NCBI RefSeq assembly: GCF_963921235.1
Contig: NC_086097.1
Span: 105,526,001 to 105,590,000, forward strand
Direction of reading: 5' to 3'
Length of the DNA stretch: 64,000 nt
From: Mobula hypostoma
Lineage: Eukaryota
Program-made: the position numbers and the translations under genes
In this document: piece after piece, positions 111-31,309 of the stretch
Layout: each line of letters begins with the position of its first letter
Position numbering within the stretch: the stretch's first letter is position 1
The notes under the pieces: model-generated
What the model was told of the DNA's origin: nothing
Databases searched by the model: none
Seen by the model: the letters and a program-made list of their open reading frames with translations, nothing else

Positions 111-144
111 CATTCTGTAATCTCTGCAGAGTGAACAGTTTCCC

Positions 145-1428: not shown

Positions 1429-2833
1429 CATAGAAACATAGAAACATAGAAAATAGGTGCAGGAGTAGGCCATTCGGCCCTTCGAGCCTGCACCGCCATT
1501 TATTATGATCATGGCTGATCATCCAACTCAGAACCCCGCCCCAGCCTTCCCTCCATACCCGCTGACCCCTGTAGCCACAAGGGCCATATCTAACTCCCTC
1601 TTAAACATAGCTAATGAACTGGCCTCAACAGTTTCCTGTGGCAGAGAATTCCACAGATTCACCACTCTCTGTGTGACAAGTTTTTCCTAATCTCGGTCCT
1701 AAAAGGCTTCCCCTCTATCCTCAAACTGTGACCCCTCGTTCTGGACTTACCCAACATCGGGAACAATCTTCCTGCATCCAGCCTGTCCAATCCCTTTAGG
1801 ATCTTATACATTTCAATCAGATCCCCCCTCAATCTTCTAAATTCCAACGAGTATAAGCCCAGTTCATCCAGTCTTTCTTCACATGAAAGTCCTGCCATCC
1901 CAGGAATCAATCTGGTGAACCTTCTTTGTACTCCCTCTATGGCAAAGATGTCTTTCCTCAGATTAGGGGACCAAAACTGCACACAATACTCCAGGTGTGG
2001 TCTCACCAAGGCCTTGTACAACTGCAGTAGTACCTCCCTGCTCCTGTACTCGAATCCTCTCGCTATAAATGCCAGCATACCATTCGCCTTTTTCACCGCC
2101 TGCTGTACCTGCATGCCCACTTTCAATGACTGGTGTATAACGACACCCAGGTCTCGTTGCACCTCCCCTTTTCCTAATCGGCCACCATTCAGATAATAAT
2201 CTGTTTTCCTATTTTTGCCACCAAAGTGGATAACTTCACATTTATCCACATTAAATTGCATCTGCCATGAGTTTGCCCACTCACCCAACCTATCCAAGTC
2301 ACCCTGCATCCTCTTAGCATCCTCCTCACTGCTAACACTGCCACCCAGCTTCGTGTCATCCGCAAACTTGGAGATGCTGCATTTAATTCCCTCATCCAAG
2401 TCATTAATATATATTGTAAACAACTGGGGTCCCAGCACTGAGCCTTGCGGTACCCCACTAGTCACCGCCTGCCATTCTGAAAAGGTCCCGTTTATTCCCA
2501 CTCTTTGCTTCCTGTCTGCTAACCAATTCTCGACCCACACCAATACCTTACCCCCAATACCGTGTGCTTTAAGTTTGCGCACTAATCTCCTGTGTGGGAC
2601 CTTGTCAAAAGCCTTTTGAAAATCCAAATATACCACATCCACTGGTTCTCCCCTATCCACTCTACTAGTTACATCCTCAAAAAATTCTATGAGATTCGTC
2701 AGACATGATTTTCCTTTCACAAATCCATGCTGACTTTGTCCGATGATTTCACCGCTTTCCAAATGTGCTGTTATCACATCCTTGATAACTGACTCCAGCA
2801 GTTTCCCCACCACCGACGTTAGGCTAACTGGTC
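1429..2833 (-). mobile_element. CR1 LINE copy B (second family), 5'-truncated, nested in CR1-A
   Basis: (CATAGAAA)n tail at ~1429-1452, 3' UTR hairpin, RT ORF 1659-2813. Host sequence CTATCATGTCTCC (intact in copy D) is split, with TCAT on both sides. Confidence 0.95.
1528..2833 (-). pseudogene. CR1-B reverse transcriptase domain, 5'-truncated, frameshift near 1676
   Basis: [57 protein letters not shown]. Ends KNLSHREW instead of KNFFTQRVV as in copy E. Confidence 0.93.
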
Positions 2834-5416
2834 ATGTCTCCTCTCATCCTCCTTCTCTCCAAAGAGTAAAACCCTAGCTCCCTTAATCTCTGATCATAAT
2901 GCATACTCTCTAAACCAGGCAGCATCTTGGTAAATCTCGTCTGTACCCTTTCCAATGCTTCCACATTCTTCCTATAGTGAGGCAACCAGAACTGGACACA
3001 GTACTCCAAGTATGGCCTAACCAGAGTTTTATAGAGCTGCATCATTACCTCACGACTCTTAAACTCTATCCCTCGACTTATGAAAGCTAACACCCCATAA
3101 GCCTTTTTAACTACCCTATCTACCTGTGAGGCAACTTTTAGGGTTCTGTGGTCATGTACCCCCAGATCCCTCTGCTCCTCCGCACTACCAAGTATCCTGC
3201 CATTTACTTTGTACTCTGCCTTGGAGTTTGTCCTTCCAAAGTGTACCACCTCACACTTACCCGGGTTGAACTCCATCTGCCACTTCTTAGCCCACTTCTG
3301 CATCCTATCAATGTCTCTCTGCAATCTTCAACAATCCTCTACACTATCTACAACACCACCAACCTTTGTGTATCTGCAAACTTGCCAACCCACCCTTCTA
3401 CCCCCACATCCAGGTCGTTAATAAAAATCACGAAAAGTAGAGGTCCCAGAACAGATCCTTGTGGGACACCACTAGTCACAATCCTCCAATCTGAATGTAC
3501 TCCCTCCACCACGACCCTCTGCCTTCTGCAGGCAAGCCAATTCTGAATCCGCCTGGCCAAACTTCCCTGGATCCCATGCCTTCTGACTTTCTGAATAAGC
3601 CTACCGTGTGGAACCTTGTCAAATGCCTTACTAAAATCCATATAGCTTACATCCACTGCACTACCCACATCTATATGCCCGGTCACCTCCTCAAAGTACT
3701 CTATCAGGCTTGTTAGTCATGATCTGCCCTTCACAAAGCCATGCTGACTGTCCCTGATCAGACCATGATGCCCATAGATCCTATCTCTAAGAATGTTTTC
3801 CAACAGCTTTCCCATCACAGATGTAAGGCTTACTGGTCTATAATTACCTGGACTATCCCTACTACCTTTTTTGAACAAAGGGACAACATTCGCTTCCATC
3901 CAATCCTCTGGTACCATTCCTGTGGACAACGAGGACATAAAGTTCCTAGCCAGAGGCTCAGCAATCTCTTCCCTCACCTCATGGAGCAGCCTGGGGAACA
4001 TTCATGAAGTTCATATTCATCCGTCATCAAGTTCCCTCCCATTGGTGAATACTGAAGAGAAGTATTCATTGAGGACCTCGCTCATTTCCACAGCCTCCAG
4101 GCACATCTTTCCACCTTTATCTCTAATCGATCCTATCTTCACTCCTGTCATCCTTTTGTTCTTCACATAATTGAAGAATGCCTTGGTGTTTTCCTTTACC
4201 CTACTCGCCAAGACCTTCTCATGCCCCCTTCTTGCTCTTCTCAGCCCCTCCTTAAGCTCCTTTCTTGCTTCCCTATATTCCTCAATAGACCCATCTGATC
4301 CTTGCTTCCTAAACCCTCATGTATGCTGCCTTCTTCCACCTGACTAGATTTTCCACCTCACTTGTCACCCATGGTTCCTTCACCCTACCATTCTTTATCT
4401 TCCTCACTGGGACAAATTTATCCCTAACAAGAGATCTGTAAACATCGACCACATGTCCATAGTACATTTCCCTGCAAAAACATCATCCCAATTCACACCC
4501 GCAAGTTCTAACCTTATAGCCTCATAATTTGCCCTTCCCCAATTAAAAATTTTCCTGTCATCTCTGACCCTATCCTTTTCCATGATAATGCTAAAGGCCA
4601 GGGAGCGGTGGTCACTGTCCCCCAGATGCTCACCCACTGAGAGATCTGTGACCTGACCTGGTTCATTACCTAGTACTAGATCTAGTATGGCATTCCCCCT
4701 AGTCGGCCTGTCCACATACTGTGACAGGAATCCATCCTGGACACACTTAAAAAACTCTGCCCCACCTAAACCCTTGGAACTAATCAGGTGCCAATCAATA
4801 TTAGGGAAGTTAAAGTCACCCATGATAACAACCCTGTTATTTTTGCACCTTTCCAAAATCTGCCTCCCAATCTGCTCCTCTGTATCTCTGCTGCTACCAG
4901 GGGGCCTACAGAATACCCCCAGTAGGGTAACTGCTCCCTTCCTGTTCCTGCCTTCCACCCATACTGACTTAAAAGAGGATCCTGCTACATTACCCACCCT
5001 TTCTGTAGCTGTAATAGTATCCCTGACCAGTAATGCCACCCCTCCTCCCCTTTTTCCCCCCTCTCTATTCCTTTTTAAGACTGAAATCCAGGAATATTGA
5101 GAATCCATTCCTGCCCTGGTGCCAGCCAAGTCTCTGTAATGGCCACTACATCATAATTCCATGTATGTATCCAAGCTCTCAGTTCATCACCTTTGTTCCT
5201 GATGCTTCTTGCATTGAGGTACACACATTTCAGCCCTTCTGCCTTACTACCTTTACACCGTTTATTCTGCTTCTCTTTCCTCAAAGCCTCTCTATATGTT
5301 AAATCTGTCATAGTCCGGTCCGTGAAGTCCATATTCCGGTTCATGGTCCGGTCCATCGACCCTTGCTCCAGGTTTTCCCATCTACCCTGTTTCTGTCCTT
5401 GTTGAGCTAATTGAGA

Positions 5417-5450
5417 CAGCTGATGCTCGTTGGGGCTGGCTGCATAAATA
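5417..5450 (+). promoter_or_regulatory. Candidate LTR core promoter (E-box CAGCTG plus TATA-like CATAAATA)
   Basis: CAGCTG at 5417-5422 and CATAAATA at 5443-5450, about 140 bp inside the 5' end. Motif match only. Confidence 0.4.
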
Positions 5451-5659
5451 TCTCCAGAGACCAGGGTGTGGTTGCTGGATTGTTCTTGTCCTTACTCCTT
5501 GTATCCCTTCCTCTGCCTTCTGTTTCCTCGCCTGGAGCCCTGCCTTGTCTTGCCGGTAACTTTCGCCTCGCCTGAAGTTCTGTCTCACCTTGCTTTGCCA
5601 GTAGCCTTCCCTTGGCTTGCTGTCTGGTCCTGGAGCCACCCTGTACCTAGCTCCTTTCC

Positions 5660-5795
5660 TGTCCCTTGCCTCCGCCCAGGTAAGCCAGGCCGTCTTGCCA
5701 TTACCTGGGGTTGGTTCTGTCACTTTCTGTCCCTTGCCTCTGCCCAGGTAAGCCAGGCCGTCTTGCAGTTCCCTGGGGTTGGTTCTGTCCCTTCC
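5660..5795 (+). repeat. 68-bp tandem duplication in the LTR, each copy containing CAGGTAAG
   Basis: TGTCCCTTGCCTCYGCCCAGGTAAGCCAGGCCGTCTTGC...GGGGTTGGTTCTGTC at 5660 and 5728. A 20-bp duplication (GTGATCCGCGCCCTGCCCAG) follows at 5818/5838. Confidence 0.9.
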
Positions 5796-5871
5796 TGTCC
5801 CTCGCCTCTGTCGGGACGTGATCCGCGCCCTGCCCAGGTGATCCGCGCCCTGCCCAGGAGGAGCCTACCAA

Positions 5872-8800
5872 GCCTCGCCTCAAGTCTCCAGTCTCCAGCC
5901 TTGCCTTGCCTCAAGTCTCCAGCCTCCAGCCTCGCCTTGCCTCAAGTCTCCAGCCTCCAGCCTCACCTCAAGTCTCCAGCCTCCAGCCTCGCCTCAAGTC
6001 TCCAGCATCCAGCCTCCAGCCTCGCCTCAAGTCTCCAGCATCCAGCCTCCAGCCTCGCCTCAAGTCACCAGCATCCAGCCTCCAGCCTCGCCTCAAGTCT
6101 CCAGCATCCAGCCTCCAGCCTCGCCTCAAGTCTCCAGCATCCAGCCTCCAGCCTCACCTCAAGTCTCCAGCCTCCAGCCTCACCTCAAGTCTCCAGCCTC
6201 CAGCCTCCAGCCTCGCCTCAAGTCTCCAGCCTCACCTCAAGTCTCCAGCATCCAGCCTCCAGCCTCGCCTCAAGTCTCCAGCCTCCAGCCTCGCCTCAAG
6301 TCTCCAGCATCCAGCCTCCAGCCTCGCCTCAAGTCTCCAGCCTCCAGCCTCACCTCAAGTCTCCAGCCTCCAGCCTCCAGCCTCGCCTCAAGTCTCCAGC
6401 ATCCAGCCTCCAGCCTCGCCTCAAGTCTCCAGCCTCCAGCCTCGCCTCAAGTCTCCAGCCTCCAGCCTCCAGCCTCGCCTCAAGTCTCCAGCCTCCAGCC
6501 TCGCCTCAACTCTCCAGCATCCAGCCTCCAGCCTCGCCTCAAGTCTCCAGCCTCCAGCCTCCAGCCTCGCCTCAAGTCTCCAGCCTCCAGCCTCGCCTCA
6601 AGTCTCCAGCCTCCAGCCTCCAGCCTCGCCTCAAGTCTCCAGCATCCAGCCTCGCCTCAAGTCTCCAGCCTCCAGCCTCGCCTCAAGTCTCCAGCCTCGC
6701 CTCAAGTCTCCAACCTCCAGGCTCGCCTCAAGTCTCCAGCATCCAGCCTCCAGCCTCGCCTCAAGTCTCCAGCCTCCAGCCTCCAGCCTCGCCTCAAGTC
6801 TCCAGCCTCCAGCCTCCAGCCTCGCCTCAAATCTCCAGCCACCAGCCTCGCCTCAAGTCTCCAGCATCCAGCCTCGCCTCAAGTCTCCAGCATCCAGCCT
6901 TACCTCAAGTCTCCAGCCTCCAGCCTCGCCTCAAGTCTCCAGCCTCGCCTCAAGTCTCCAACCTCCAGGCTCGCCTCAAGTCTCCAGCATCCAGCCTCCA
7001 GCCTCGCCTCAAGTCTCCAGCCTCCAGCCTCCAGCCTCGCCTCAAGTCTCCAGCCTCCAGCCTCCAGCCTCGCCTCAAGTCTCCAGCCTCCAGCCTCCAG
7101 CCTCGCCTCAAGTCTCCAGCCTCCAGCCTCCAGCCTCGCCTCAAATCTCCAGCCTCCAGCCTCGCCTCAAGTCTCCAGCCTCCAGCCTCGCCTCAACTCT
7201 CCAGCATCCAGCCTCCAGCCTCGCCTCAAGTCTCCAGCCTCCAGCCTCCAGCCTCGCCTCAAGTCTCCAGCCTCCAGCCTCGCCTCAAGTCTCCAGCCTC
7301 CAGCCTCGCCTCAAGTCTCCAGCCTCGCCTCAAGTCTCCAACCTCCAGGCTCGCCTCAAGTCTCCAGCATCCAGCCTCCAGCCTCGCCTCAAGTCTCCAG
7401 CCTCCAGCCTCCAGCCTCGCCTCAAGTCTCCAGCCTCCAGCCTCCAGCCTCGCCTCAAGTCTCCAGCCACCAGCCTCGCCTCAAGTCTCCAGCATCCAGC
7501 CTCGCCTCAAGTCTCCAGCATCCAGCCTTACCTCAAGTCTCCAGCCTCCAGCCTCGCCTCAAGTCTCCAGCCTCGCCTCAAGTCTCCAACCTCCAGGCTC
7601 GCCTCAAGTCTCCAGCATCCAGCCTCCAGCCTCGCCTCAAGTCTCCAGCATCCAGCCTCCAGCCTCGCCTCAAGTCTCCAGCCTCCAGCCTCGCCTCAAG
7701 TTTCCAGCCTACAGCCTCCAGCCTCTCCTCAAGTCTCCAGCCTCCAGCCTCCAGCCTCGCCTCAAGTCTCCAGCCTCCAGCCTCCAGCCTCGCCTCAAAT
7801 CTCCAGCCTCCAGCCTCGCCTCAATTCTGCAGCCTCCAGCCTCCAGCCTCGCCTCAAGTCTCCAGCCTCCAGCCTCGCCTCAATTCTGCAGCCTCCAGCC
7901 TCCAGCCTCGCCTCAAGTCTCCAGCCTCCAGCCTCGCCTCAAGTCTCCAGCCTCCAGCCTCCAGCCTCACCTCAAGTCTCCAGCCTCCAGCCTTGCCTCA
8001 AGTCTCCAGCCTCCAGCCTCGCCTCAAGTCTCCAGCCTCCAGCCGCACCTCAAGTCTCCAGCCTCCAACCTCGCCTCAAGTCTCCAGCCTCACCTCAAGT
8101 CTCCAGCCTCGCCTCAAGTCTCCAGCCTCGCCTCAAGTCTCCAGCCTCCAGCCGCGCCTCAAGTCTCCAGCCTCCATCCTCCAGCCTCGCCTCAAGTCTC
8201 CATCCTCCAGCCTCGCCTCCAGCCTCCAGCCTCGCCTCAAGTCTCCAGCCTCCAGCCTCGCCTCAAGTCTCCAGCCTCCAGCCTCCAGCCTCGCCTCAAG
8301 TCTCCAGCCTCCAGCCTCGCCTCAAGCCTCCAGCCTCCAGCCTCAAGTCTCCAGCCTCCAGCCTCGCCTCAAGTCTCCAGCCTCCAGCCTCGCCTCATGT
8401 CTCCATCCTCCAGCCTCGCCTCAAGTCTCCAGCCTCACCTCGTCTCCAGCCTCCAGCCTCGCCCCGTCTCCAGCCTCCAGCCTCGCCTCAAGTCTCCAGC
8501 CTCCAGCCTCGCATCAGGTCTCCAGCCTCCAGCCTCGCCTCGTCTCCAGCCTCCAGCCTCGCCTCAAGTCTCCAGCCTCCAGCCTCCAGCCTCAAGTCTC
8601 CATCCTCCAGCCTCGCCTCAAGTCTCCAGCCTCCAGCCGCACCTCAAGTCTCCAGCCTCCAACCTCGCCTCAAGTCTCCAGCCTCACCTCAAGTCTCCAG
8701 CCTCGCCTCAAGTCTCCAGCCTCCAGCCGCGCCTCAAGTCTCCAGCCTCCATCCTCCAGCCTCGCCTCAAGTCTCCATCCTCCAGCCTCGCCTCCAGCCT

Positions 8801-11800: not shown

Positions 11801-14800
11801 AGTCTCCATCCTCCAGCCTCGCCTCAAGTCTCCATCCTCCAGCCTCGCCTCAAGTCTCCAGCCTCCAGCCTCGCCTCGTCTCCAGCCTCCAGCCTCGCCT
11901 CAAGTCTCCAGCCTCCAGCCTCGCCTCAAGTCTCCAGCCTCCAGCCTCGCATCTCCAGCCTCCAGCCTCGCCTCAAGTCTCCAGCCTCCAGCCTCGCCTC
12001 AAGTCTTCAGCCTCCAGCCTCGCCTCAAGTCTCTAGCCTCCAGCCTCCAGCCTCGCCTCAAGTCTCCAGCCTCCAGCCTCGCCTCAAGTCTCCAGCCTCC
12101 AGCCTCACCTCAAGTCTCCAGCCTCCAGCCTCCAGCCTCGCCTCAAGTCTCCAGCCTCCAGCCTCGCCTCAAGTCTCCAGCCTCCAGCCATGCCTCAAGT
12201 CTCCAGCCTCCAGCCTCCAGCCTCACCTCAAGTCTCCAGCTTCCAGCCTCGCCTCAAGTCTCCAGCCTCCAGCCTCGCCTCAAGTCTCCAGCCTCCAGCC
12301 TCACCTCAAGTCTCCAGCCTCGCCTCATGTCTCCATCCTCCAGCCTCGCCTCAAGTCTCCATCCTCCAGCCTCGCCTCAAGTCTCCAGCCTCCAGCCTCG
12401 CCTCAAGTCTCCAGCCTCCAGCCTCCAGCCTCACCTCAAGTCTCCAGCCTCCAGCCTCCAGCCTCGCCTCAAGTCTCCAGCCTCCAGCCTCGCCTCAAGT
12501 CTCCAGCCTCCAGCCTCCAGCCTCACCTCAAGTCTCCAGCCTCCAGCCTTGCCTCAAGTCTCCAGCCTCCAGCCTCGCCTCAAGTCTCCAGCCTCCAGCC
12601 GCACCTCAAGTCTCCAGCCTCCAACCTCGCCTCAAGTCTCCAGCCTCACCTCAAGTCTCCAGCCTCGCCTCAAGTCTCCAGCCTCGCCTCAAGTCTCCAG
12701 CCTCCAGCCGCGCCTCAAGTCTCCAGCCTCCATCCTCCAGCCTCGCCTCAAGTCTCCATCCTCCAGCCTCGCCTCCAGCCTCCAGCCTCGCCTCAAGTCT
12801 CCAGCCTCCAGCCTCGCCTCAAGTCTCCAGCCTCCAGCCTCCAGCCTCGCCTCAAGTCTCCAGCCTCCAGCCTCGCCTCAAGCCTCCAGCCTCCAGCCTC
12901 AAGTCTCCAGCCTCCAGCCTCGCCTCAAGTCTCCAGCCTCCAGCCTCGCCTCATGTCTCCATCCTCCAGCCTCGCCTCAAGTCTCCAGCCTCACCTCGTC
13001 TCCAGCCTCCAGCCTCGCCCCGTCTCCAGCCTCCAGCCTCGCCTCAAGTCTCCAGCCTCCAGCCTCGCATCAGGTCTCCAGCCTCCAGCCTCGCCTCGTC
13101 TCCAGCCTCCAGCCTCGCCTCAAGTCTCCAGCCTCCAGCCTCCAGCCTCAAGTCTCCAGCCTCCAGCCGCACCTCAAGTCTCCAGCCTCCAACCTCGCCT
13201 CAAGTCTCCAGCCTCACCTCAAGTCTCCAGCCTCGCCTCAAGTCTCCAGCCTCCAGCCGCGACTCAAGTCTCCAGCCTCCATCCTCCAGCCTCGCCTCAA
13301 GTCTCCATCCTCCAGCCTCGCCTCCAGCCTCCAGCCTCCAGCCTCGCCTCAAGTCTCCAGCCTCCAGCCTCGCCTCAAGTCTCCAGCCTCCAGCCTCCAG
13401 CCTCGCCTCAAGTCTCCAGCCTCCAGCCTCGCCTCAAGCCTCCAGCCTCCAGCCTCCAGCCTCCAGCCTCAAGTCTCCAGCCTCGAGCCTCGCCTCAAGT
13501 CTCCAGCCTCCAGCCTCGCCTCATGTCTCCATCCTCCAGCCTCGCCTCAAGTCTCCAGCCTCACCTCGTCTCCAGCCTCCAGCCTCGCCCCGTCTGCAGC
13601 CTCCAGCCTCGCCTCAAGTCTCCAGCCTCCAGCCGCACCTCAAGTCTCCAGCCTCCAACCTCGCCTCAAGTCTCCAGCCTCACCTCAAGTCTCCAGCCTC
13701 GCCTCAAGTCTCCAGCCTCCAGCCGCGCCTCAAGTCTCCAGCCTCCATCCTCCAGCCTCGCCTCAAGTCTCCATCCTCCAGCCTCGCCTCCAGCCTCCAG
13801 CCTCCAGCGTCGCCTCAAGTCTCCAGCCTCCAGCCTCGCCTCAAGTCTCCAGCCTCCAGCCTCCAGCCTCGCCTCAAGTCTCCAGCCTCCAGCCTCGCCT
13901 CAAGCCTCCAGCCTCCAGCCTCCAGCCTCCAGCCTCAAGTCTCCAGCCTCCAGCCTCGCCTCAAGTCTCCAGCCTCCAGCCTCGCCTCATGTCTCCATCC
14001 TCCAGCCTCGCCTCAAGTCTCCAGCCTCACCTCGTCTCCAGCCTCCAGCCTCGCCCCGTCTGCAGCCTCCAGCCTCGCCTCAAGTCTCCAGCCTCCAGCC
14101 TCGCCTCGTCTCCAGCCTCCAGCCTCGTCTCAAGTCTCCAGCCTCCAGCCTCCAGCCTCAAGTCTCCATCCTCCAGCCTCGCCTCAAGTCTCCAGCCTCC
14201 AGCCGCACCTCAAGTCTCCAGCCTCCAACCTCGCCTCAAGTCTCCAGCTTCACCTCAAGTCTCCAGCCTCGCTTCAAGTCTCCAGCCTCCAGCCTCGCCT
14301 CAAGTCTCCAGCCTCCATCCTCCAGCCTCGCCTCAAGTCTCCATCCTCCAGCCTCGCCTCCAACCTCCAGCCTCCAGCCTCGCCTCAAGTCTCCAGCCTC
14401 CAGCCTCGCCTCAAGTCTCCAGCCTCCAGCCTCCAGCCTCGCCTCAAGTCTCCAGCCTCCAGCCTCGCCTCAAGCCTCCAGCCTCCAGCCTCCAGCCTCC
14501 AGCCTCCAGCCTCAAGTCTCCAGCCTCCAGCCTCGCCTCATGTCTCCATCCTCCAGCCTCGCCTCAAGTCTCCAGCCTCCAACCTCGCCTCAAGTCTCCA
14601 GCCTCACCTCAAGTCTCCAGCCTCGCCTCAAGTCTCCAGCCTCGCCTCAAGTCTCCAGCCTCCAGCCGCGCCTCAAGTCTCCAGCCTCCATCCTCCAGCC
14701 TCGCCTCAAGTCTCCATCCTCCAGCCTCGCCTCCAGCCTCCAGCCTCGCCTCAAGTCTCCAGCCTCCAGCCTCGCCTCAAGTCTCCAGCCTCCAGCCTCC

Positions 14801-17800
14801 AGCCTCGCCTCAAGCCTCCAGCCTCCAGCCTCCAGCCTCAAGTCTCCAGCCTCCAGCCTCGCCTCAAGTCTCCAGCCTCCAGCCTCGCCTCATGTCTCCA
14901 TCCTCCAGCCTCGCCTCAAGTCTCCAGCCTCACCTCGTCTCCAGCCTCCAGCCTCGCCCCGTCTCCAGCCTCCAGCCTCGCCTCAAGTCTCCAGCCTCCA
15001 GCCTCGCCTCGTCTCCAGCCTCCAGCCTCGCCTCAAGTCTCCAGCCTCCAGCCTCCAGGCTCAAGTCTCCATCCTCCAGCCTCGCCTCAAGTCTCCAGCC
15101 TCCAGCCGCACCTCAAGTCTCCAGCCTCCAACCTCGCCTCAAGTCTCCAGCCTCACCTCAAGTCTCCAGCCACGCCTCAAGTCTCCAGCCTCCAGCTGCG
15201 CCTCAAGTCTCCAGCCTCCATCCTCCAGCCTCGCCTCAAGTCTCCATCCTCCAGCCTCGCCTCCAGCCTCCAGCCTCCAGCCTCGCCTCAAGTCTCCAGC
15301 CTCCAGCCTCGCCTCAAGTCTCCAGCCTCCAGCCTCCAGCCTCGCCTCAAGTCTCCAGCCTCCAGCCTCGCCTCAAGCCTCCAGCCTCCAGCCTCCAGCC
15401 TCCAGCCTCCAGCCTCAAGTCTCCAGCCTCCAGCCTCGCCTCAAGTCTCCAGCCTCCAGCCTCGCCTCAAGTCTCCAGCCTCCAGCCTCCAGCCTCACCT
15501 CAAGTCTCCAGCCTCGCCTCATGTCTCCATCCTCCAGCCTCGCCTCAAGTCTCCATCCTCCAGCCTCGCCTCAAGTCTCCAGCCTCCAGCCTCGCCTCAA
15601 GTCTCCAGCCTCCAGCCTCCAGCCTCACCTCAAGTCTCCAGCCTCCAGCCTCCAGCCTCGCCTCAAGTCTCCAGCCTCCAGCCTCGCCTCAAGTCTCCAG
15701 CCTCCAGCCTCCAGCCTCACCTCAAGTCTCCAGCCTCCAGCCTTGCCTCAAGTCTCCAGCCTCCAGCCTCGCCTCAAGTCTCCAGCCTCCAGCCGCACCT
15801 CAAGTCTCCAGCCTCCAACCTCGCCTCAAGTCTCCAGCCTCACCTCAAGTCTCCAGCCTCGCCTCAAGTCTCCAGCCTCCAGCCGCGCCTCAAGTCTCCA
15901 GCCTCCATCCTCCAGCCTCGCCTCAAGTCTCCATCCTCCAGCCTCGCCTCCAGCCTCCAGCCTCGCCTCAAGTCTCCAGCCTCCAGCCTCGCCTCAAGTC
16001 TCCAGCCTCCAGCCTCCAGCCTCGCCTCAAGTCTCCAGCCTCCAGCCTCGCCTCAAGCCTCCAGCCTCCAGCCTCAAGTCTCCAGCCTCCAGCCTCGCCT
16101 CAAGTCTCCAGCCTCCAGCCTCGCCTCATGTCTCCATCCTCCAGCCTCGCCTCAAGTCTCCAGCCTCACCTCGTCTCCAGCCTCCAGCCTCGCCCCGTCT
16201 CCAGCCTCCAGCCTCGCCTCAAGTCTCCAGCCTCCAGCCTCGCATCAGGTCTCCAGCCTCCAGCCTCGCCTCGTCTCCAGCCTCCAGCCTCGCCTCAAGT
16301 CTCCAGCCTCCAGCCTCCAGCCTCAAGTCTCCATCCTCCAGCCTCGCCTCAAGTCTCCAGCCTCCAGCCGCACCTCAAGTCTCCAGCCTCCAACCTCGCC
16401 TCAAGTCTCCAGCCTCACCTCAAGTCTCCAGCCTCGCCTCAAGTCTCCAGCCTCCAGCCGCGCCTCAAGTCTCCAGCCTCCATCCTCCAGCCTCGCCTCA
16501 AGTCTCCATCCTCCAGCCTCGCCTCCAGCCTCCAGCCTCCAGCCTCGCCTCAAGTCTCCAGCCTCCAGCCTCGCCTCAAGTCTCCAGCCTCCAGCCTCCA
16601 GCCTCGCCTCAAGTCTCCAGCCTCCAGCCTCGCCTCAAGCCTCCAGCCTCCAGCCTCCAGCCTCCAGCCTCAAGTCTCCAGCCTCGAGCCTCGCCTCAAG
16701 TCTCCAGCCTCCAGCCTCGCCTCATGTCTCCATCCTCCAGCCTCGCCTCAAGTCTCCAGCCTCACCTCGTCTCCAGCCTCCAGCCTCGCCCCGTCTGCAG
16801 CCTCCAGCCTCGCCTCAAGTCTCCAGCCTCCAGCCGCACCTCAAGTCTCCAGCCTCCAACCTCGCCTCAAGTCTCCAGCCTCACCTCAAGTCTCCAGCCT
16901 CGCCTCAAGTCTCCAGCCTCCAGCCGCGCCTCAAGTCTCCAGCCTCCATCCTCCAGCCTCGCCTCAAGTCTCCATCCTCCAGCTTCGCCTCCAGCCTCCA
17001 GCCTCCAGCGTCGCCTCAAGTCTCCAGCCTCCAGCCTCGCCTCAAGTCTCCAGCCTCCAGCCTCCAGCCTCGCCTCAAGTCTCCAGCCTCCAGCCTCGCC
17101 TCAAGCCTCCAGCCTCCAGCCTCCAGCCTCCAGCCTCAAGTCTCCAGCCTCCAGCCTCGCCTCAAGTCTCCAGCCTCCAGCCTCGCCTCATGTCTCCATC
17201 CTCCAGCCTCGCCTCAAGTCTCCAGCCTCACCTCGTCTCCAGCCTCCAGCCTCGCCCCGTCTGCAGCCTCCAGCCTCGCCTCAAGTCTCCAGCCTCCAGC
17301 CTCGCCTCGTCTCCAGCCTCCAGCCTCGTCTCAAGTCTCCAGCCTCCAGCCTCCAGCCTCAAGTCTCCATCCTCCAGCCTCGCCTCAAGTCTCCAGCCTC
17401 CAGCCGCTCCTCAAGTCTCCAGCCTCCAACCTCGCCTCAAGTCTCCAGCTTCACCTCAAGTCTCCAGCCTCGCTTCAAGTCTCCAGCCTCCAGCCTCGCC
17501 TCAAGTCTCCAGCCTCCATCCTCCAGCCTCGCCTCAAGTCTCCATCCTCCAGCCTCGCCTCCAACCTCCAGCCTCCAGCCTCGCCTCAAGTCTCCAGCCT
17601 CCAGCCTCGCCTCAAGTCTCCAGCCTCCAGCCTCCAGCCTCGCCTCAAGTCTCCAGCCTCCAGCCTCGCCTCAAGCCTCCAGCCTCCAGCCTCCAGCCTC
17701 CAGCCTCCAGCCTCAAGTCTCCAGCCTCCAGCCTCGCCTCATGTCTCCATCCTCCAGCCTCGCCTCAAGTCTCCAGCCTCCAACCTCGCCTCAAGTCTCC

Positions 17801-20800
17801 AGCCTCACCTCAAGTCTCCAGCCTCGCCTCAAGTCTCCAGCCTCGCCTCAAGTCTCCAGCCTCCAGCCGCGCCTCAAGTCTCCAGCCTCCATCCTCCAGC
17901 CTCGCCTCAAGTCTCCATCCTCCAGCCTCGCCTCCAGCCTCCAGCCTCGCCTCAAGTCTCCAGCCTCCAGCCTCGCCTCAAGTCTCCAGCCTCCAGCCTC
18001 CAGCCTCGCCTCAAGCCTCCAGCCTCCAGCCTCCAGCCTCAAGTCTCCAGCCTCCAGCCTCGCCTCAAGTCTCCAGCCTCCAGCCTCGCCTCATGTCTCC
18101 ATCCTCCAGCCTCGCCTCAAGTCTCCAGCCTCACCTCGTCTCCAGCCTCCAGCCTCGCCCCGTCTCCAGCCTCCAGCCTCGCCTCAAGTCTCCAGCCTCC
18201 AGCCTCGCCTCGTCTCCAGCCTCCAGCCTCGCCTCAAGTCTCCAGCCTCCAGCCTCCAGGCTCAAGTCTCCATCCTCCAGCCTCGCCTCAAGTCTCCAGC
18301 CTCCAGCCGCACCTCAAGTCTCCAGCCTCCAACCTCGCCTCAAGTCTCCAGCCTCACCTCAAGTCTCCAGCCACGCCTCAAGTCTCCAGCCTCCAGCTGC
18401 GCCTCAAGTCTCCAGCCTCCATCCTCCAGCCTCGCCTCAAGTCTCCATCCTCCAGCCTCGCCTCCAGCCTCCAGCCTCCAGCCTCGCCTCAAGTCTCCAG
18501 CCTCCAGCCTCGCCTCAAGTCTCCAGCCTCCAGCCTCCAGCCTCGCCTCAAGTCTCCAGCCTCCAGCCTCGCCTCAAGCCTCCAGCCTCCAGCCTCCAGC
18601 CTCCAGCCTCCAGCCTCAAGTCTCCAGCCTCCAGCCTCGCCTCAAGTCTCCAGCCTCCAGCCTCGCCTCATGTCTCCATCCTCCAGCCTCGCCTCAAGTC
18701 TCCAGCCTCACCTCGTCTCCAGCCTCCAGCCTCGCCCCGTCTCCAGCCTCCAGCCTCGCCCCGTCTCCAGCCTCCAGCCTCGCCTCAAGTCTCCAGCCTC
18801 CAGCCTCGCCTCGTCTCCAGCCTCCAGCCTCCAGCCTCAAGTCTCCATCCTCCAGCCTCGCCTCAAATCTCCAGCCTCGCCTCGTCTCCAGCCTCCAGCC
18901 TCGCCTCGTCTCCAGCCTCCAGCCTCGCCTCGTCTCCAGCCTCCAGCCCCGCCTCAAATCTCCAGCCTCCTGCCTCGCCTCGTCTCCAGCCTCCAGCCTC
19001 GCCTCAAGTCTCCAGCATCCAGCCTCGCCTCAAGTCTCCAGCATCCAGCCTTACCTCAAGTCTCCAGCCTCCAGCCTCGCCTCAAGTCTCCAACCTCCAG
19101 GCTCGCCTCAAGTCTCCAGCATCCAGCCTCCAGCCTCCAGCCTCACCTCAAGTCTCCAGCATCCAGCCTCCAGCCTCGCCTCAAGTCTCCAGCATCCAGC
19201 CTCGCCTCGTCTCCAGCCTCCAGCCCCGTCTCAAATCTCCAGCCTCCTGCCTCACCTCGTCTCCAGCCTCCAGCCTCGCCTCAAGTCTCCAGCCTCCAGC
19301 CTCGCCTCAAGTCTTCAGCCTCCAGCCTCGCCTCAAGTCTCTAGCCTCCAGCCTCCAGCCTCGCCTCAAGTCTCTAGCCTCCAGCCTCCAGCCTCGCCTC
19401 AAGTCTCCAGCCTCCAGCCTCGCCTCAAGTCCCCAGCCTCCAGCCTCCAGCCTCGCCTCAAGTCTCCAGCCTCCAGCCTCCAGCCTCGCCTCAAGTATCC
19501 AGCCTTCAGCCTCCAGCCTCACCTCAAGTCTCCAGCCTCCAGCCTTGCCTCAAGTCTCCAGCCTCCAGCCTCACCTCAAGTCTCCAGCCTCCAGCTTCCA
19601 GCCTCGCCTCAAGTCTCCAGCCTCCAGCCTCGCCTCAAGTCTCCAGCCTCCAACCTCGCCTCAAGTCTCCAGCCTCCAGCCTCGCCTCAAGTCTCCAGCC
19701 TCCAGCCATGCCTCAAGTCTCCAGCCTCCAGCCTCCAGCCTCACCTCAAGTCTCCAGTCTCCAGCCTCGCCTCAAGTCTCCAGCCTCCAGCCTCGCCTCA
19801 AGTCTCCATCCTCCAGCCTCGCCTCAAGTCTCCAGCCTCCATCCTCCAGCCTCGCCTCAAGTCTCCAGCCTCCAGCCTTGCCTCAAGTCTCCAGCCTCCA
19901 ACCGCGCCTCAAGTCTCCAGCCTCCAGCCTCGCATCAAGTCTCCAGCATCCAGCCTCCAGCCTCGCCTCAAGTCTCCATCCTCCAGCCTCGCCTCAAGTC
20001 TCCATCCTCCAGCCTCGCCTCAAGTCTCCAGCCTCCATCCTCCAGCCTCGCCTCAAGTCTCCAGCCTCCAGCCTTGCCTCAAGTCTCCAGCCTCCAACCT
20101 CGCCTCAAGTCTCCAGCCTCTAGCCTCGCCTCAAGTCTCCAGCATCCAGCCTCCAGTCTCACCTCAAGTCTCCAGCCTCCAGCCTCGCCTCAAGTCTCCA
20201 GCCTCGCCTCAAGTCTCCAGCCTCCAGCCGCGCCTCAAGTCTCCAGCCTCCATCCTCCAGCCTCGCCTCAAGCCTCCAGCCTCGCCTCCAGTCTCCAGCC
20301 TCCAGCATCCAGCCTCGCCTCAAGTCTCCAGCCTCCAGCCTCGCCTCAAGTCTCCAGCCTCCAGCCTCCAGCCTCGCCTCAAGTCTCCAGCCTCCAGCCT
20401 CGCCCCGTCTCCAGCCTCCAGCCTCGCCTCAAGTCTCCAGCCTCCAGCCTCGCCTCGTCTCCAGCCTCCAGCCTCGCCTCAAGTCTCCAGCCTCCAGCCT
20501 CCAGCCTCAAGTCTCCATCCTCCAGCCTCGCCTCAAGTCTCCAGCCTCGCCTCGTCTCCAGCCTCCAGCCTCGCCTCGTCTCCAGCCTCCAGCCTCGCCT
20601 CGTCTCCAGCCTCCAGCCCCGCCTCAAATCTCCAGCCTCCTGCCTCGCCTCGTCTCCAGCCTCCAGCCTCGCCTCAAGTCTCCAGCATCCAGCCTCGCCT
20701 CAAGTCTCCAGCATCCAGCCTTACCTCAAGTCTCCAGCCTCCAGCCTCGCCTCAAGTCTCCAACCTCCAGGCTCGCCTCAAGTCTCCAGCATCCAGCCTC

Positions 20801-23800: not shown

Positions 23801-26800
23801 TCGCCTCAAGTCTCTAGCCTCCAGCCTCCAGCCTCGCCTCAAGTCTCCAGCCTCCAGCCTCACCTCAAGTCTCCAGCCTCCAGCCTCCAGCCTCGCCTCA
23901 AGTCTCCAGCCTCCAGCCTCGCCTCAAGTCTCCAGCCTCCAGCCATGCCTCAAGTCTCCAGCCTCCAGCCTCCAGCCTCACCTCAAGTCTCCAGTCTCCA
24001 GCCTCGCCGCAAGTCTCCAGCCTCCAGCCTCGCCTCAAGTCTCCAGCCTCCAGCCGCGCCTCAAGTCTCCAGCCTCCATCCTCCAGCCTCGCCTCAAGTC
24101 TCCATCCTCCAGCCTCACCTCAAGTCTCCAGCCTCCAGCCTCGCCTCGTCTCCAGCCTCCAGCCTCGCCTCAAGTCTCCAGCCTCCAGCCTCCAGCCTCT
24201 CCTCAAGTCTCCAGCCTCGCCTCATGTCTCCATCCTCCAGCCTCGCCTCAAGTCTCCATCCTCCAGCCTCGCCTCAAGTCTCCAGCCTCCAGCCTCGCCT
24301 CGTCTCCAGCCTCCAGCCTCGCCTCAAGTCTCCAGCCTCCAGCCTCGCCTCAAGTCTCCAGCCTCCAGCCTCGCATCTCCAGCCTCCAGCCTCGCCTCAA
24401 GTCTCCAGCCTCCAGCCTCGCCTCAAGTCTTCAGCCTCCAGCCTCGCCTCAAGTCTCTAGCCTCCAGCCTCCAGCCTCGCCTCAAGTCTCCAGCCTCCAG
24501 CCTCGCCTCAAGTCTCCAGCCTCCAGCCTCACCTCAAGTCTCCAGCCTCCAGCCTCCAGCCTCGCCTCAAGTCTCCAGCCTCCAGCCTCGCCTCAAGTCT
24601 CCAGCCTCCAGCCTCGCCTCAAGTCTCCAGCCTCCAGCCATGCCTCAAGTCTCCAGCCTCCAGCCTCCAGCCTCACCTCAAGTCTCCAGCCTCCAGCCTC
24701 GCCTCAAGTCTCCATCCTCCAGCCTCGCCTCAAGTCTCCAGCCTCCAGCCGCGCCTCAAGTCTCCAGCCTCCATCCTCCAGCCTCGCCTCAAGTCTCCAG
24801 CCTCCAGCCTTGCCTCAAGTCTCCAGCCTCCAACCGCGCCTCAAGTCTCCAGCCTCCAGCCTCGCCTCAAGTCTCCAGCATCCAGCCTCCAGTCTCACCT
24901 CAAGTCTCCAGCCTCCAGCCTCGCCTCAAGTCTCCAGCCTCCAGCCTCGCCTCAAGTCTCCAGCCTCGCCTCAAGTCTCCAGCCTCCAGCCGCGCCTCAA
25001 GTCTCCAGCCTCCATCCTCCAGCCTCGCCTCCAGTCTCCAGCCTCCAGCCTCCAGCCTCGCCTCAAGTCTCCAGCCTCCAGCCTCGCCTCAAGTCTCCAG
25101 CCTCCAGCCTCCAGCCTCGCCTCAAGTCTCCAGCCTCCAGCCTCGCCTCAAGTCTCCAGCCTCCAGCCTCGTCTCCAGCCTCCAGCCTCGCCTCAAGTCT
25201 CCAGCCTCCAGCCTCGCCTCATGTCTCCATCCTCCAGCCTCGCCTCAAGTCTCCAGCCTCACCTCGTCTCCAGCTTCCAGCCTCGCCCCGTCTCCAGCCT
25301 CCAGCCTCGCCTCAAGTCTCCAGCCTCCAGCCTCGCCTCGTCTCCAGCCTCCAGCCTCGCCTCGTATCCAGCCTCCAGCCTCGCCTCGTCTCCAGCCTCA
25401 AGTCTCCATCCTCCAGCCTCGCCTCAAGTCTCCAGCCTCGCCTCGTCTCCAGCCTCCAGCCTCGCCTCGTCTCCAGCCTCCAGCCTCGCCTCGTCTCCAG
25501 CCTCCAGCCTCGCCTCAAGTCTCCAGCCTCCAGCCTCGCCTCAAGTCTTCAGCCTCCAGCCTCGCCTCAAGTCTCTAGCCTGCAGCCTCCAGCCTCGCCT
25601 CAAGTCTCCAGCCTCCAGCCTCGCCTCAAGTCTCCAGCCTCCAGCCTCACCTCAAGTCTCCAGCCTCCAGCCTCCAGCCTCGCCTCAAGTCTCCAGCCTC
25701 CAGCCTCGCCTCAAGTCTCCAGCCTCCAGCCATGCCTCAAGTCTCCAGCCTCCAGCCTCCAGCCTCACCTCAAGTCTCCAGTCTCCAGCCTCGCCGCAAG
25801 TCTCCAGCCTCCAGCCTCCAGCCTCGCCTCAAGTCTCCAGCCTCCAGCCTCGCCTCAAGTCTCCAGCCTCCAGCCGCGCCTCAAGTCTCCAGCCTCCATC
25901 CTCCAGCCTCGCCTCAAGTCTCCATCCTCCAGCCTCACCTCAAGTCTCCAGCCTCCAGCCTCGCCTCGTCTCCAGCCTCCAGCCTCGCCTCAAGTCTCCA
26001 GCCTCCAGCCTCCAGCCTCACCTCAAGTCTCCAGCCTCGCCTCATGTCTCCATCCTCCAGCCTCGCCTCAAGTCTCCATCCTCCAGCCTCGCCTCAAGTC
26101 TCCAGCCTCCAGCCTCGCCTCGTCTCCAGCCTCCAGCCTCGCCTCAAGTCTCCAGCCTCCAGCCTCGCCTCAAGTCTCCAGCCTCCAGCCTCGCATCTCC
26201 AGCCTCCAGCCTCGCCTCAAGGCTCCAGCCGCCAGCCTCGCCTCAAGTCTTCAGCCTCCAGCCTCGCCTCAAGTCTCTAGCCTCCAGCCTCCAGCCTCGC
26301 CTCAAGTCTCCAGCCTCCAGCCTCGCCTCAAGTCTCCAGCCTCCAGCCTCACCTCAAGTCTCCAGCCTCCAGCCTCCAGCCTCGCCTCAAGTCTCCAGCC
26401 TCCAGCCTCGCCTCAAGTCTCCAGCCTCCAGCCATGCCTCAAGTCTCCAGCCTCCAGCCTCCAGCCTCACCTCAAGTCTCCAGCTTCCAGCCTCGCCTCA
26501 AGTCTCCAGCCTCCATCCTCCAGCCTCGCCTCAAGTCTCCATCCTCCAGCCTCACCTCAAGTCTCCAGCCTCCAGCCTCGCCTCGTCTCCAGCCTCCAGC
26601 CTCGCCTCAAGTCTCCAGCCTCCAGCCTCCAGCCTCACCTCAAGTCTCCAGCCTCGCCTCATGTCTCCATCCTCCAGCCTCGCCTCAAGTCTCCATCCTC
26701 CAGCCTCGCCTCAAGTCTCCAGCCTCCAGCCTCGCCTCGTCTCCAGCCTCCAGCCTCGCCTCAAGTCTCCAGCCTCCAGCCTCGCCTCAAGTCTCCAGCC

Positions 26801-29735
26801 TCCAGCCTCGCATCTCCAGCCTCCAGCCTCGCATCTCCAGCCTCCAGCCTCGCCTCAAGTCTCCAGCCTCCAGCCTCGCCTCAAGTCTCCAGCCTCCAGC
26901 CTCCAGCCTCACCTCAAGTCTCCAGTCTCCAGCCTCGCCGCAAGTCTCCAGCCTCCAGCCTCCAGCCTCGCCTCAAGTCTCCAGCCTCCAGCCTCGCCTC
27001 AGGTCTCCAGCCTCCAGCCGCGCCTCAAGTCTCCAGCCTCCATCCTCCAGCCTCGCCTCAAGTCTCCATCCTCCAGCCTCACCTCAAGTCTCCAGCCTCC
27101 AGCCTCGCCTCGTCTCCAGCCTCCAGCCTCGCCTCAAGTCTCCAGCCTCCAGCCTCCAGCCTCACCTCAAGTCTCCAGCCTCGCCTCATGTCTCCATCCT
27201 CCAGCCTCGCCTCAAGTCTCCATCCTCCAGCCTCGCCTCAAGTCTCCATCCTCCAGCCTCGCCTCGTCTCCAGCCTCCAGCCTCGCCTCAAGTCTCCAGC
27301 CTCCAGCCTCGCCTCAAGTCTCCAGCCTCCAGCCTCGCATCTCCAGCCTCCAGCCTCGCCTCAAGTCTCCAGCCTCCAGCCTCGCCTCAAGTCTTCAGCC
27401 TCCAGCCTCGCCTCAAGTCTCTAGCCTCCAGCCTCCAGCCTCGCCTCAAGTCTCCAGCCTCCAGCCTCGCCTCAAGTCTCCAGCCTCCAGCCTCACCTCA
27501 AGTCTCCAGCCTCCAGCCTCCAGCCTCGCCTCAAGTCTCCAGCCTCCAGCCTCGCCTCAAGTCTCCAGCCTCCAGCCTCGCCTCAAGTCTCCAGCCTCCA
27601 GCCATGCCTCAAGTCTCCAGCCTCCAGCCTCCAGCCTCACCTCAAGTCTCCAGCTTCCAGCCTCGCCTCAAGTCTCCAGCCTCCAGCCGCGCCTCAAGTC
27701 TCCAGCCTCCATCCTCCAGCCTCGCCTCAAGTCTCCATCCTCCAGCCTCGCCTCAAGTCTCCATCCTCCAGCCTCACCTCAAGTCTCCAGCCTCCAGCCT
27801 CGCCTCGTCTCCAGCCTCCAGCCTCGCCTCAAGTCTCCAGCCTCCAGCCTCCAGCCTCACCTCAAGTCTCCAGCCTCGCCTCATGTCTCCATCCTCCAGC
27901 CTCGCCTCAAGTCTCCATCCTCCAGCCTCGCCTCAAGTCTCCAGCCTCCAGCCTCGCCTCGTCTCCAGCCTCCAGCCTCGCCTCAAGTCTCCAGCCTCCA
28001 GCCTCGCCTCAAGTCTCCAGCCTCCAGCCTCGCATCTCCAGCCTCCAGCCTCGCCTCAAGTCTCCAGCCTCCAGCCTCGCCTCAAGTCTCCAGCCTCCAG
28101 CCTCCAGCCTCACCTCAAGTCTCCAGCCTCCAGCCTCCAGCCTCGCCTCAAGTCTCCAGCCTCCAGCCTCGCCTCAAGTCTCCAGCCTCCAGCCATGCCT
28201 CAAGTCTCCAGCCTCCAGCCTCCAGCCTCACCTCAAGTCTCCAGTCTCCAGCCTCGCCTCAAGTCTCCAGCCTCCAGCCTCCAACCTCGCCTCAAGTCTC
28301 CATCCTCCAGCCTCGCCTCAAGTCTCCATCCTCCAGCCTCGCCTCAAGTCTCCATCCTCCAGCCTCGCCTCAAGTCTCCAGCCTCCAGCCTCGCATCTCC
28401 AGCCTCCAGCCTCGCCTCAAGTCTCCAGCCTCCAGCCTCGCCTCAAGTCTTCAGCCTCCAGCCTCGCCTCAAGTCTCTAGCCTCCAGCCTCCAGCCTCGC
28501 CTCAAGTCTCCAGCCTCCAGCCTCACCTCAAGTCTCCAGCCTCCAGCCTCCAGCCTCGCCTCAAGTCTCCAGCCTCCAGCCTCGCCTCAAGTCTCCAGCC
28601 TCCAGCCATGCCTCGTCTCCAGCCTCCAGCCTCCAGCCTCACCTCAAGTCTCCAGCCTCCAGCCTCGCCTCGTCTCCAGCCTCCAGCCTCGCCTCAAGTC
28701 TCCAGCCTCCAGCCTCCAGCCTCACCTCAAGTCTCCAGCCTCGCCTCATGTCTCCATCCTCCAGCCTCGCCTCAAGTCTCCATCCTCCAGCCTCGCCTCA
28801 AGTCTCCAGCCTCCAGCCTCGCCTCGTCTCCAGCCTCCAGCCTCGCCTCAAGTCTCCAGCCTCCAGCCTCGCCTCAAGTCTCCAGCCTCCAGCCTCGCAT
28901 CTCCAGCCTCCAGCCTCGCATCTCCAGCCTCCAGCCTCGCCTCAAGTCTCCAGCCTCCAGCCTCGCCTCAAGTCTCCAGCCTCCAGCCTCACCTCAAGTC
29001 TCCAGCCTCCAGCCTCCAGCCTCGCCTCAAGTCTCCAGCCTCCAGCCTCGCCTCAAGTCTCCAGCCTCCAGCCTCGCCTCAAGTCTCCAGCCTCCAGCCA
29101 TGCCTCAAGTCTCCAGCCTCCAGCCTCACCTCAAGTCTCCAGTCTCCAGCCTCGCCTCAAGTCTCCAGCCTCCAGCCTCCAACCTCGCCTCAAGTCTCCA
29201 TCCTCCAGCCTCGCCTCAAGTCTCCATCCTCCAGCCTCACCTCAAGTCTCCAGCCTCCAGCCTCGCCTCGTCTCCAGCCTCCAGCCTCGCCTCATCTCCA
29301 GCCTCCAGCCTCGCCTCAAGTCTCCAGCCTCCAGCCTCCAGCCTCGCCTCAAGTCTCCAGCCTTGCCTCATGTCTCCATCCTCCAGCCTCACCTCAAGTC
29401 TCCAGCCTCCAGCCTCGCCTCGTCTCCAGCCTCCAGCCTCGCCTCAAGTCTCCAGCCTCCAGCCTCGCCTCAAGTCTCCAGCCTCCAGCCTCGCATCTCC
29501 AGCCTCCAGCCTCGCATCTCCAGCCTCCAGCCTCGCCTCAAGGCTCTTTCCTCCAGCCTCCAGTCTCGCCTCAAGGCTCTTTCCTCCAGCCTCCAGCCTC
29601 GCCTCAAGTCTCCAGCCTCCAGCCTCGCCTCAAGGCTCCAACCTCCAGCCTCTAGCCTCGCCTCAAGGCTCCAGCCTCCAGCCTCGCCTCAAGGCTCCAG
29701 CCTCCAGCCTCCAGCCTCGCCTCAAGTCTCCAGCA
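5872..29735. repeat. ~23.9-kb modular satellite: CTCAAGT-(CTCCAGC)n-CTCGC, units mostly 19/26/33 bp
   Basis: Continuous array read directly. Variants include CTCAC, CTCGT, CTCCATC, ATCCAGC, CTCATGT, CTCTAGC. Strongly C-rich plus strand. Confidence 0.98.
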
Positions 29736-29787
29736 TCTGCCAAACCTTGCCTCGTATGTTGCCTAGCCTCGAGCCTGTAGACTCCAG

Positions 29788-29930
29788 CCTCTAGCTTCTA
29801 GCCTCTTGCCAAACCCAGCCAAGTCTCTAACCTCTAGCTTCTAGCCTCTTGCCAAGCCCAGCCAAGTCTCTAGCCTCTAGCTTCTAGCCTCTTGCCAAGC
29901 CAAGCCAAGTCCCTAGCCTCTAGCTTCTAG
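29788..29930. repeat. 43-bp tandem repeat (~3.3 copies) at the 3' edge of the array
   Basis: CCTCTAGCTTCTAGCCTCTTGCCAARCCCAGCCAAGTCTCTAR starting at 29788, 29831, 29874 and 29917. Confidence 0.9.
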
Positions 29931-30271
29931 TCTGAAGACTCCAGCCTCATCCTGCCTGCCTGCCACGCCTCGGCCTTGCCTAGTTCTGGGGTCCGAGCCA
30001 GAGGCAAGACCCAGGTCCTGGGTCGTTGTCCAGTCTCCAGCTCAGAGTCCAAGCCCAGGCTCCCAGCTCTCTTGTTCAGTCCTGTTCCAGGTTCCTGGTC
30101 TTCCTGTCCATGTCCTTGCCATCGCCCTTTATCCTGGTCCTGTCCCTAGTACTTCAGTGTCTGTGTCTTGCACTTGGGTCCATTCCCAGCACCGCCTTAT
30201 GACAAAATCTGGCTTTACTCCATGCACTTCCTTCAGTGCTCTATCTCTCCGGGTCCCATCCCCCTCGCAAA

Positions 30272-31202: not shown

Positions 31203-31309
31203 TGTGAAGACTAACTGCGAGCAAGCTTGTCCTCCGCCTGTTCTCATCAAAGCCTCAAAGCTCCACTCCTTCACTGGCCCACTCACTCACTGGCCGCTTG
31301 TCTGTATCC

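Follow-up and report, generated by a model that had tools for sequence, protein, structure and literature searches.

We analysed a 64,000-nucleotide stretch of the Mobula hypostoma genome (contig NC_086097.1, positions 105,526,001 to 105,590,000; the window), in which a 24.9-kb insert at 5306-30204 carries a 23.9-kb tandem array between two short non-array ends. Comparison with an uninterrupted copy of the host sequence shows a single insertion of one element into a long interspersed nuclear element (LINE), accompanied by a 5-bp target-site duplication. The element is probably a Ty3/Gypsy solo long terminal repeat (LTR) of Sushi-like type, judging from its termini and a terminal motif. We consider it quite likely that one such element, a probable Sushi-like solo LTR, entered a CR1-type LINE and that a short tandem repeat inside it was then expanded on the spot into the array.

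The insert starts with TGTCATA at 5306 and ends with TATGACA at 30204, which together form a perfect 7-bp terminal inverted repeat, the match breaking at base 8. It is bordered by exact plus-strand copies of AAATC at 5301-5305 and 30205-30209. The empty site is provided by a second LINE in the window (copy D, 40443-43744, minus strand), which is uninterrupted at the insertion point and aligns to both flanks. The left flank matches copy D up to 43356-43358 with 94.9% identity, and the right flank matches it from 43354 onward with 96.4% identity over 391 bp. In copy D the two flanks adjoin around a single copy of the site (43352-43356), reading AGATC there. A first-pass annotation, made from the sequence alone, had described a bounded insert with these ends and this duplication, and flanks that rejoin into LINE sequence intact in copy D; the inverted repeat and the empty site agree with both descriptions. 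It had further held that TG...CA ends, a short target-site duplication and the lack of internal genes define a solo LTR, which is insufficient by itself. In the 1-kb surroundings of both array edges, TG..CA and a 5-bp duplication coincide at 26 position pairs, and this combination alone is therefore weak evidence. An inverted repeat exceeding 3 bp is present in just one of these pairs, 5306/30204, which the empty site independently picks as well.

The left part of the element (5306-5861, plus strand), which we would name U3 and the start of R, measures 556 bp rather than the roughly 570 bp first estimated. It contains CAGCTG at 5417, a TATA-like CATAAAT at 5443, a 68-bp duplication with GGTAAG at 5652-5810 and a 20-bp duplication at 5818-5858. 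The right non-array part, put earlier at about 470 bp, is about 460 bp long and composed of two portions. Some 170 bp belong to a diverged, unexpanded 43-bp tandem of 3.5 copies (29763-29930, plus strand), a probable left-over of the seed region, and about 270 bp are unique (29935-30204, plus strand). The motif TGCACTTGGGTCC stands at 30169-30181 in this unique portion, the probable U5, which closes with TATGACA. No Pfam family was found in the three frames of at least 120 amino acids that overlap the unique ends, between which lies the uninterrupted array, and no Rfam match in 4800-6200. An inverted-LTR structure was rejected, the two ends having only 7 bp in common. The splice-donor-like GGTAAG lies just upstream of the array (5679 and 5747) and recurs on the minus strand in two shorter relatives of the element, B (32191) and C (815); a transcript spliced at this motif could bypass the array.

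The array (5862-29745, plus strand; 5862-29734 as delimited by Tandem Repeats Finder) consists of about 865 units, each combining a 12-nt (or 10/7-nt) element with one to three heptamers. By our parsing, the prevalent unit sizes are 26 bp (454 units), 33 bp (176), 19 bp (92) and 24 bp (91). There are 107 unit variants, 41 of which occur once. The array runs on one strand throughout (1640 heptamers on the plus strand, none on the minus strand), and no gap between cores exceeds 33 bp, with no inserted element, unlike a neighbouring 17-bp satellite that holds two LINEs. Among the CpG sites of the element, 145 of 852 (about 17%) read CA, TG or TA, a figure that reflects copies rather than events and that fits methylation.

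The order of the units is far from random, requiring 299 copy steps as compared to 599-620 in five shuffles. The array contains 41 exact repeats of at least 250 bp, at offsets from 617 to 15,414 bp. Block alignment identified the youngest large higher-order duplication as two 3.2-kb blocks in tandem (12286-18680, plus strand), which differ by five substitutions over 3175 aligned bases (two of them at the alignment end) and by two whole-unit indels of 19 and 26 bp. Six of the seven block pairs aligned differ by 0.16-0.85%, and many of the differences between blocks amount to an exchange of one existing array variant for another. Duplication is lowest in the first and last kilobase, each with variants of its own, the left edge being rich in ATCCAGC and AAGGCTC being confined to the last 4 kb.

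The plus strand of the array has no TAA, no TGA and 17 TAG, leaving stop-free frames of up to 5205 codons. We rejected these frames as genes, since the scarcity of stops reflects composition and the unit lengths shift the frame; gene predictors may call a Ser/Pro/Leu-rich protein on the plus strand at 5448-29794. G-quadruplex formation was likewise rejected as a driver of expansion, because the array has no three-tier motif and only 1.3% of scan windows exceed 1.2. The octamer GC[AT]GG[AT]GG occurs 927 times on the minus strand of the array (39 per kb), as compared to 3, 0 and 0 times in three unexpanded blocks. We take this octamer to be chi-like; as one case it carries no causal claim. Most likely, the array is a neutral, unstable repeat without function.

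The two shorter relatives lie in the same window. Relative B (31304-32245, minus strand) is a 5'-truncated sister element composed of a GGTAAG segment, 11.6 copies of a 34-bp unit (394 bp) and a right end, and relative C (143-870, minus strand), a duplicate of B, contains 4.8 copies of the 34-bp unit (161 bp). A further end fragment, counted with relative C, lies at 993-1086, where it is cut by the host LINE at 1086. B and C share a common truncated 5' junction and follow the same order as the element, namely left segment, tandem array and right end. In the left segment (5704-5798), 68 of 94 and 64 of 87 positions are identical to B and C, respectively (72-74%), with scores of 56 and 61 against shuffle maxima of 35 and 47. 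The right end (29974-30193) matches them at 157 of 197 and 177 of 238 positions (74-80%). The tandem units are also homologous: in five tests relating the array unit, the 34-bp unit of B and the 43-bp block, none of 300 shuffles reached the score, whereas the control, a neighbouring 33-bp satellite, was equalled by 22 and 86 of 100 shuffles and thus showed no homology. Both unique ends therefore belong to one family and are colinear, as the first-pass annotation had expected, and the colinear ends, the unit homology and the order in B and C support its proposal that an internal repeat was amplified in place. The expanded array is about 60 times longer than that of B and about 150 times longer than that of C. 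The proposed amplification by roughly two orders of magnitude is thus about right relative to these copies, which do not fix the length at insertion. Given that the duplicates B and C have 11.6 and 4.8 units, the seed changes length even when short.

The evidence for the class of the element comes from its termini and from dispersed copies in public data. On 29935-30330, which covers the element end and the LINE flank together, 7367, 6094, 328 and 308 contigs were placed from four public runs (three organisms). In all four runs, contigs with loose ends at 30190 (139, 106, 3 and 5, respectively) continue through the same 3' terminus, after which the agreement drops to 0.51-0.67. The 3' end is thus the fixed terminus of a dispersed family whose flanks are mostly unrelated. 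Of the 24 runs listed, 20 contain part of 5200-5860, with word shares of up to 0.51 for this segment; none of these is recorded as RNA, and one placed run presumed to be RNA has no bearing on expression. The junction between element and LINE is bridged by none of the 32 contig pieces listed, 14,080 more lying outside the listing, a result without bearing on its presence in other organisms.

A terminal motif derived from the three copies in the window was sought in metagenome contigs, the scan covering 41 of 64 parts. It was detected at 119 loci, of which 61 come from a pair of assemblies apparently containing animal host DNA. In these two assemblies, A[AT]TAAA lies at most 70 bases upstream at 39 of 61 loci, as compared to 7 of the other 58, which look like chance matches. 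Complete TG..CA units of 285-587 bp with a 5-bp duplication were present at 4 of 35 testable loci, while two had a 4-bp match and 29 had none. At one locus (L107), an open frame follows 18 bases after the end, and the domains Retrotrans_gag, DUF4939 and Ty3_capsid are present in its single match (85% over 56%). Pfam analysis of 61 frames at motif loci otherwise detected one RVT_1 and one SCAN domain, neither adjoining an end. A stricter 24-base motif had no locus in the metagenome contigs, and a single match of the motif in a viral contig, spanning 18 bases, was dismissed as chance. The terminal motif is thereby linked to the 3' end of Ty3/Gypsy LTRs and the orientation is set, although the link runs through a single locus and a distant family. 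At another locus (L047), a 587-bp solo LTR-like unit from another animal, ending at 1127 and with a 5-bp duplication, contains CCAG-rich short tandems at a similar relative position, a hint that seeds of this kind may be common across the LTR group.

An AATAAA near the 3' end is typical of Sushi-clade LTRs and is often lost in old copies. The element has none, and we therefore call it Sushi-like rather than filing it as Sushi. Its 5' end fits the Sushi motif TGTYANR at 7 of 7 positions and its 3' end fits CNTNACA at 6 of 7, both motifs being those given in the accessible part of PMC3601003. As a whole, the LTR identity put forward at first is made likely by the 7-bp ends, the dispersed family and the motif link. 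It stays indirect, with AATAAA missing and gag found only beside distant elements that share the motif. The open-access literature yielded nothing on this LTR family or locus; subscription papers and repeat databases were outside the scope.

Several observations weigh against the proposal of a Gypsy LTR expanded in place. AATAAA is conserved in animal Metaviridae LTRs according to the accessible text of PMC3601003, while both strands of the element's unique ends lack AATAAA and ATTAAA alike, and AATAAA is likewise absent from both strands of the ends of B and C. The element's own family was not seen beside a primer site, a polypurine tract or gag-pol. The link to gag consists of a 13+6-base motif in a distant family at 1 of 61 loci, the other 60 frames having no Gypsy domain near the end, and 22 of the 61 motif loci are also without A[AT]TAAA within 70 bases. 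The first 400 bp or so of the element have no relative in the window, B and C represent a sister subfamily (70-80%), and no complete short copy was encountered for the subfamily of the element itself. In the array, the seventh block pair is 4.1% apart and its blocks are out of register, and the array length is that of the assembly.

With regard to the origin of the array, a locus of the same LTR family that had already expanded could have supplied it through ectopic conversion or break-induced copying, in place of growth from its own seed. The family is of high copy number, with thousands of contigs placed, so donors may exist, and the expanded 26/33-bp unit differs from the adjacent 43-bp block. 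On the other hand, both edges of the array grade into the element's own flanks and have edge-specific variants, and a 19-base piece of the unit has no other copy elsewhere in the window at up to three mismatches; we regard import as unlikely. Inflation by the assembler would leave an array that is real but much shorter. Exact repeats of at least 100 bp cover 94% of the array, and one 3.2-kb block is nearly doubled, a pair that could still be an assembly error. Against this, the blocks are told apart by substitutions as well as by whole-unit differences, and they recur at many offsets (617 to 15,414 bp). Removal of all exact repeats of at least 500 bp, both copies included, still leaves about 15.5 kb, and about 20.7 kb remain when the 3.2-kb pair is merged into one block; the whole window is without N. 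Since only 35% of the bases lie in exact repeats of at least 500 bp, wholesale inflation is unlikely, and a much shorter array seems to us highly improbable.

The same growth in place might also have occurred in an element of another class, either a non-autonomous DNA transposon resembling miniature inverted-repeat transposable elements (MITEs), such as Xstir and miDNA4 of Xenopus, or a retroviral LTR. The lack of a polyadenylation signal would suit such an element, no primer site is shared behind the 3' end in the placed contigs, and MITE-borne satellites are recorded in Table 1 of PMC9659126. However, MITEs have terminal inverted repeats of more than about 10 bp, a length that the present 7 bp does not reach; 7 bp is as expected at LTR integrase sites. 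The terminal motif moreover leads into a Ty3/Gypsy gag in L107. In the accessible part of a survey of batoid genomes, Gypsy/DIRS1 elements account for 2.5-3.7%, as compared to 0.15-0.63% for retroviral LTRs (bioRxiv 10.64898/2026.10.27.761883). We thus hold a class other than Gypsy to be very unlikely, and a Gypsy LTR expanded in place is the reading that we retain.

On general grounds, reverse transcription of a 24-kb LTR would scarcely succeed, and growth would therefore have followed insertion. In the proposed course of events, a full-length element would have integrated and then lost its inside via recombination between its two LTRs. The seed repeat may have changed length in 7-bp and whole-unit steps by replication slippage, as suggested by units of 19, 26, 33 and 40 bp and by B as compared to C. 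Once long enough to misalign, it would have grown by out-of-register exchange or by copying of 0.6-5-kb blocks, a process expected to leave a near-identical middle and unhomogenised edges. Slippage with subsequent exchange or copying of blocks would be the most economical reading of the pattern. The array's persistence may be due to the satellite-rich domain around it, tandem arrays making up 76% of the window. By analogy, such a setting might favour or tolerate expansion, as proposed for Ogre-derived satellites in the accessible part of PMC7004042.

Nesting gives the order of these events. Duplication of B-type copies within the 33-bp satellite came first, and these are 8-10% apart; the LINE was then inserted, cutting one B-type copy at 1086, and diverges by 3.6-5.5% from copy D. 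The LTR subsequently entered the LINE. Among the matches listed, nearly every placed relative departs from the LTR's right end at no fewer than 10 of 270 sites; for the LINE flank the figure is 4 of 126. The present blocks of the array came last and are less than 1% apart, except for the out-of-register pair. The description of the locus as datable was thus overstated, as only the order of events is available. With a mutation rate of 7e-10 per base per generation, given for the epaulette shark in the accessible part of PMC10587355, the 3.2-kb pair would be about 0.7 million generations old and the LINE copies about 29 million, and we rejected these ages as not credible. Given these implausible ages, the lack of an LTR pair, a duplication of only five bases and block differences that include variant swaps, we assign no absolute date.

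The host LINE is split by the insertion into an ORF2 side (2832-5300, minus strand), with an endonuclease domain in 4404-5150, and a 5' side (30210-31300, minus strand), with an ORF1 GDSL esterase domain in 30272-30814 (ORF, open reading frame). The corresponding Pfam matches are Exo_endo_phos and Lipase_GDSL_2. The ORF2 side resumes at 1090-1419 past a second LINE fragment (1420-2833), which is nested in the 3' part of the host and contains RVT_1 in 1659-2831; another fragment, at 32716-33840, lies in the 33-bp satellite. Short tandem tails of LINEs are found at 1086-1110 and 40444-40460. We take an ORF1 esterase, an ORF2 endonuclease and a tandem 3' tail to be marks of CR1, the assignment to CR1 over L2 being putative.

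Two further satellites occupy much of the remaining window. The 33-bp satellite (870-999, 32246-32715 and 33841-36616) has the same junction with the truncated 5' side of B and C, and together with the B-type end it recurs at a period of about 855 bp (108-231 and 963-1086). The 17-bp satellite, G-rich, degenerate and much older, extends over 36629-40444 and 43743-64000 and has received two LINE insertions. Only 15 of about 705 units in 52000-64000 are exact, and 43743-49400 contains 59 overlapping matches to a three-tier G-quadruplex motif.

Satellite origins are usually inferred after the parent has been lost. At this locus, the parent ends, the target duplication, the empty site and two unexpanded relatives all lie within 64 kb, and the array records growth by kilobase blocks, making the locus a teaching case and an entry to a genome-wide test of expansion triggers. 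A tentative extension, to which we give limited credence, is that ray Gypsy LTRs carry a heptamer-based satellite seed at thousands of dispersed sites and run away to tens of kilobases only in satellite-rich domains or with a recombination-prone unit variant, for which the octamer-rich expanded unit is a candidate. If true, the LTR family would be a natural experiment in which position and sequence could be told apart as triggers when a satellite is born in a vertebrate.

The nearest known systems are the mouse loci Ms6-hm and Hm-2, which Kelly reportedly described in 1994 as expanded tandem repeats inside MaLR LTRs. They are reported to have 4-5-bp units in retrovirus-like LTRs, with allele sizes of up to about 20 kb. 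As here, a single-locus tandem array has expanded inside a vertebrate LTR and is flanked by its two parts; the present array differs in its composite 19-33-bp unit, its kilobase higher-order blocks, its probable Gypsy LTR and its occurrence in a cartilaginous fish. The location of both mouse loci in MaLR LTRs is given in the accessible parts of PMC9659126 (Table 1) and PMC6947457. Germline mutation rates of 2-7% per allele are on record for such loci.

In plants, 9 of 11 Lathyrus satellites originated as short arrays carried by LTR retrotransposons, according to the available text of PMC7004042. The Ogre-derived satellites of Lathyrus sativus and PisTR-A of pea resemble our case in that short arrays in dispersed LTR retrotransposons occasionally expand, mainly in heterochromatin, whereas the plant seeds lie in the 3' untranslated region of the internal region rather than in the LTR. 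The part of that study at hand indicates that loci could not be singled out, while both termini, the duplication and the empty site are available here. [quoted passage not shown] Their seed is a SINE segment and not a repeat already in tandem inside an LTR. MALREP of Monopterus albus (Gypsy LTR) and Sobo of Solanum bulbocastanum (Sore1 LTR) are satellites traced to an LTR, one of them in a fish, although bracketing of the array by the parent LTR ends is not evident from the table rows of PMC9659126. The LTRs of the Sushi and rGmr1 clades of fish, as far as described in the accessible text of PMC3601003, share with our element inverted ends of about 7 bp, a TGTYANR start and a TATA-like stretch near the 5' end; the element differs in having no AATAAA, and its clade placement is tentative. 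Satellites seeded by retrotransposons and arrays lying within LTRs are known already, and no new mechanism is involved here. What this locus adds to a known mode of satellite origin is a well-bracketed case.

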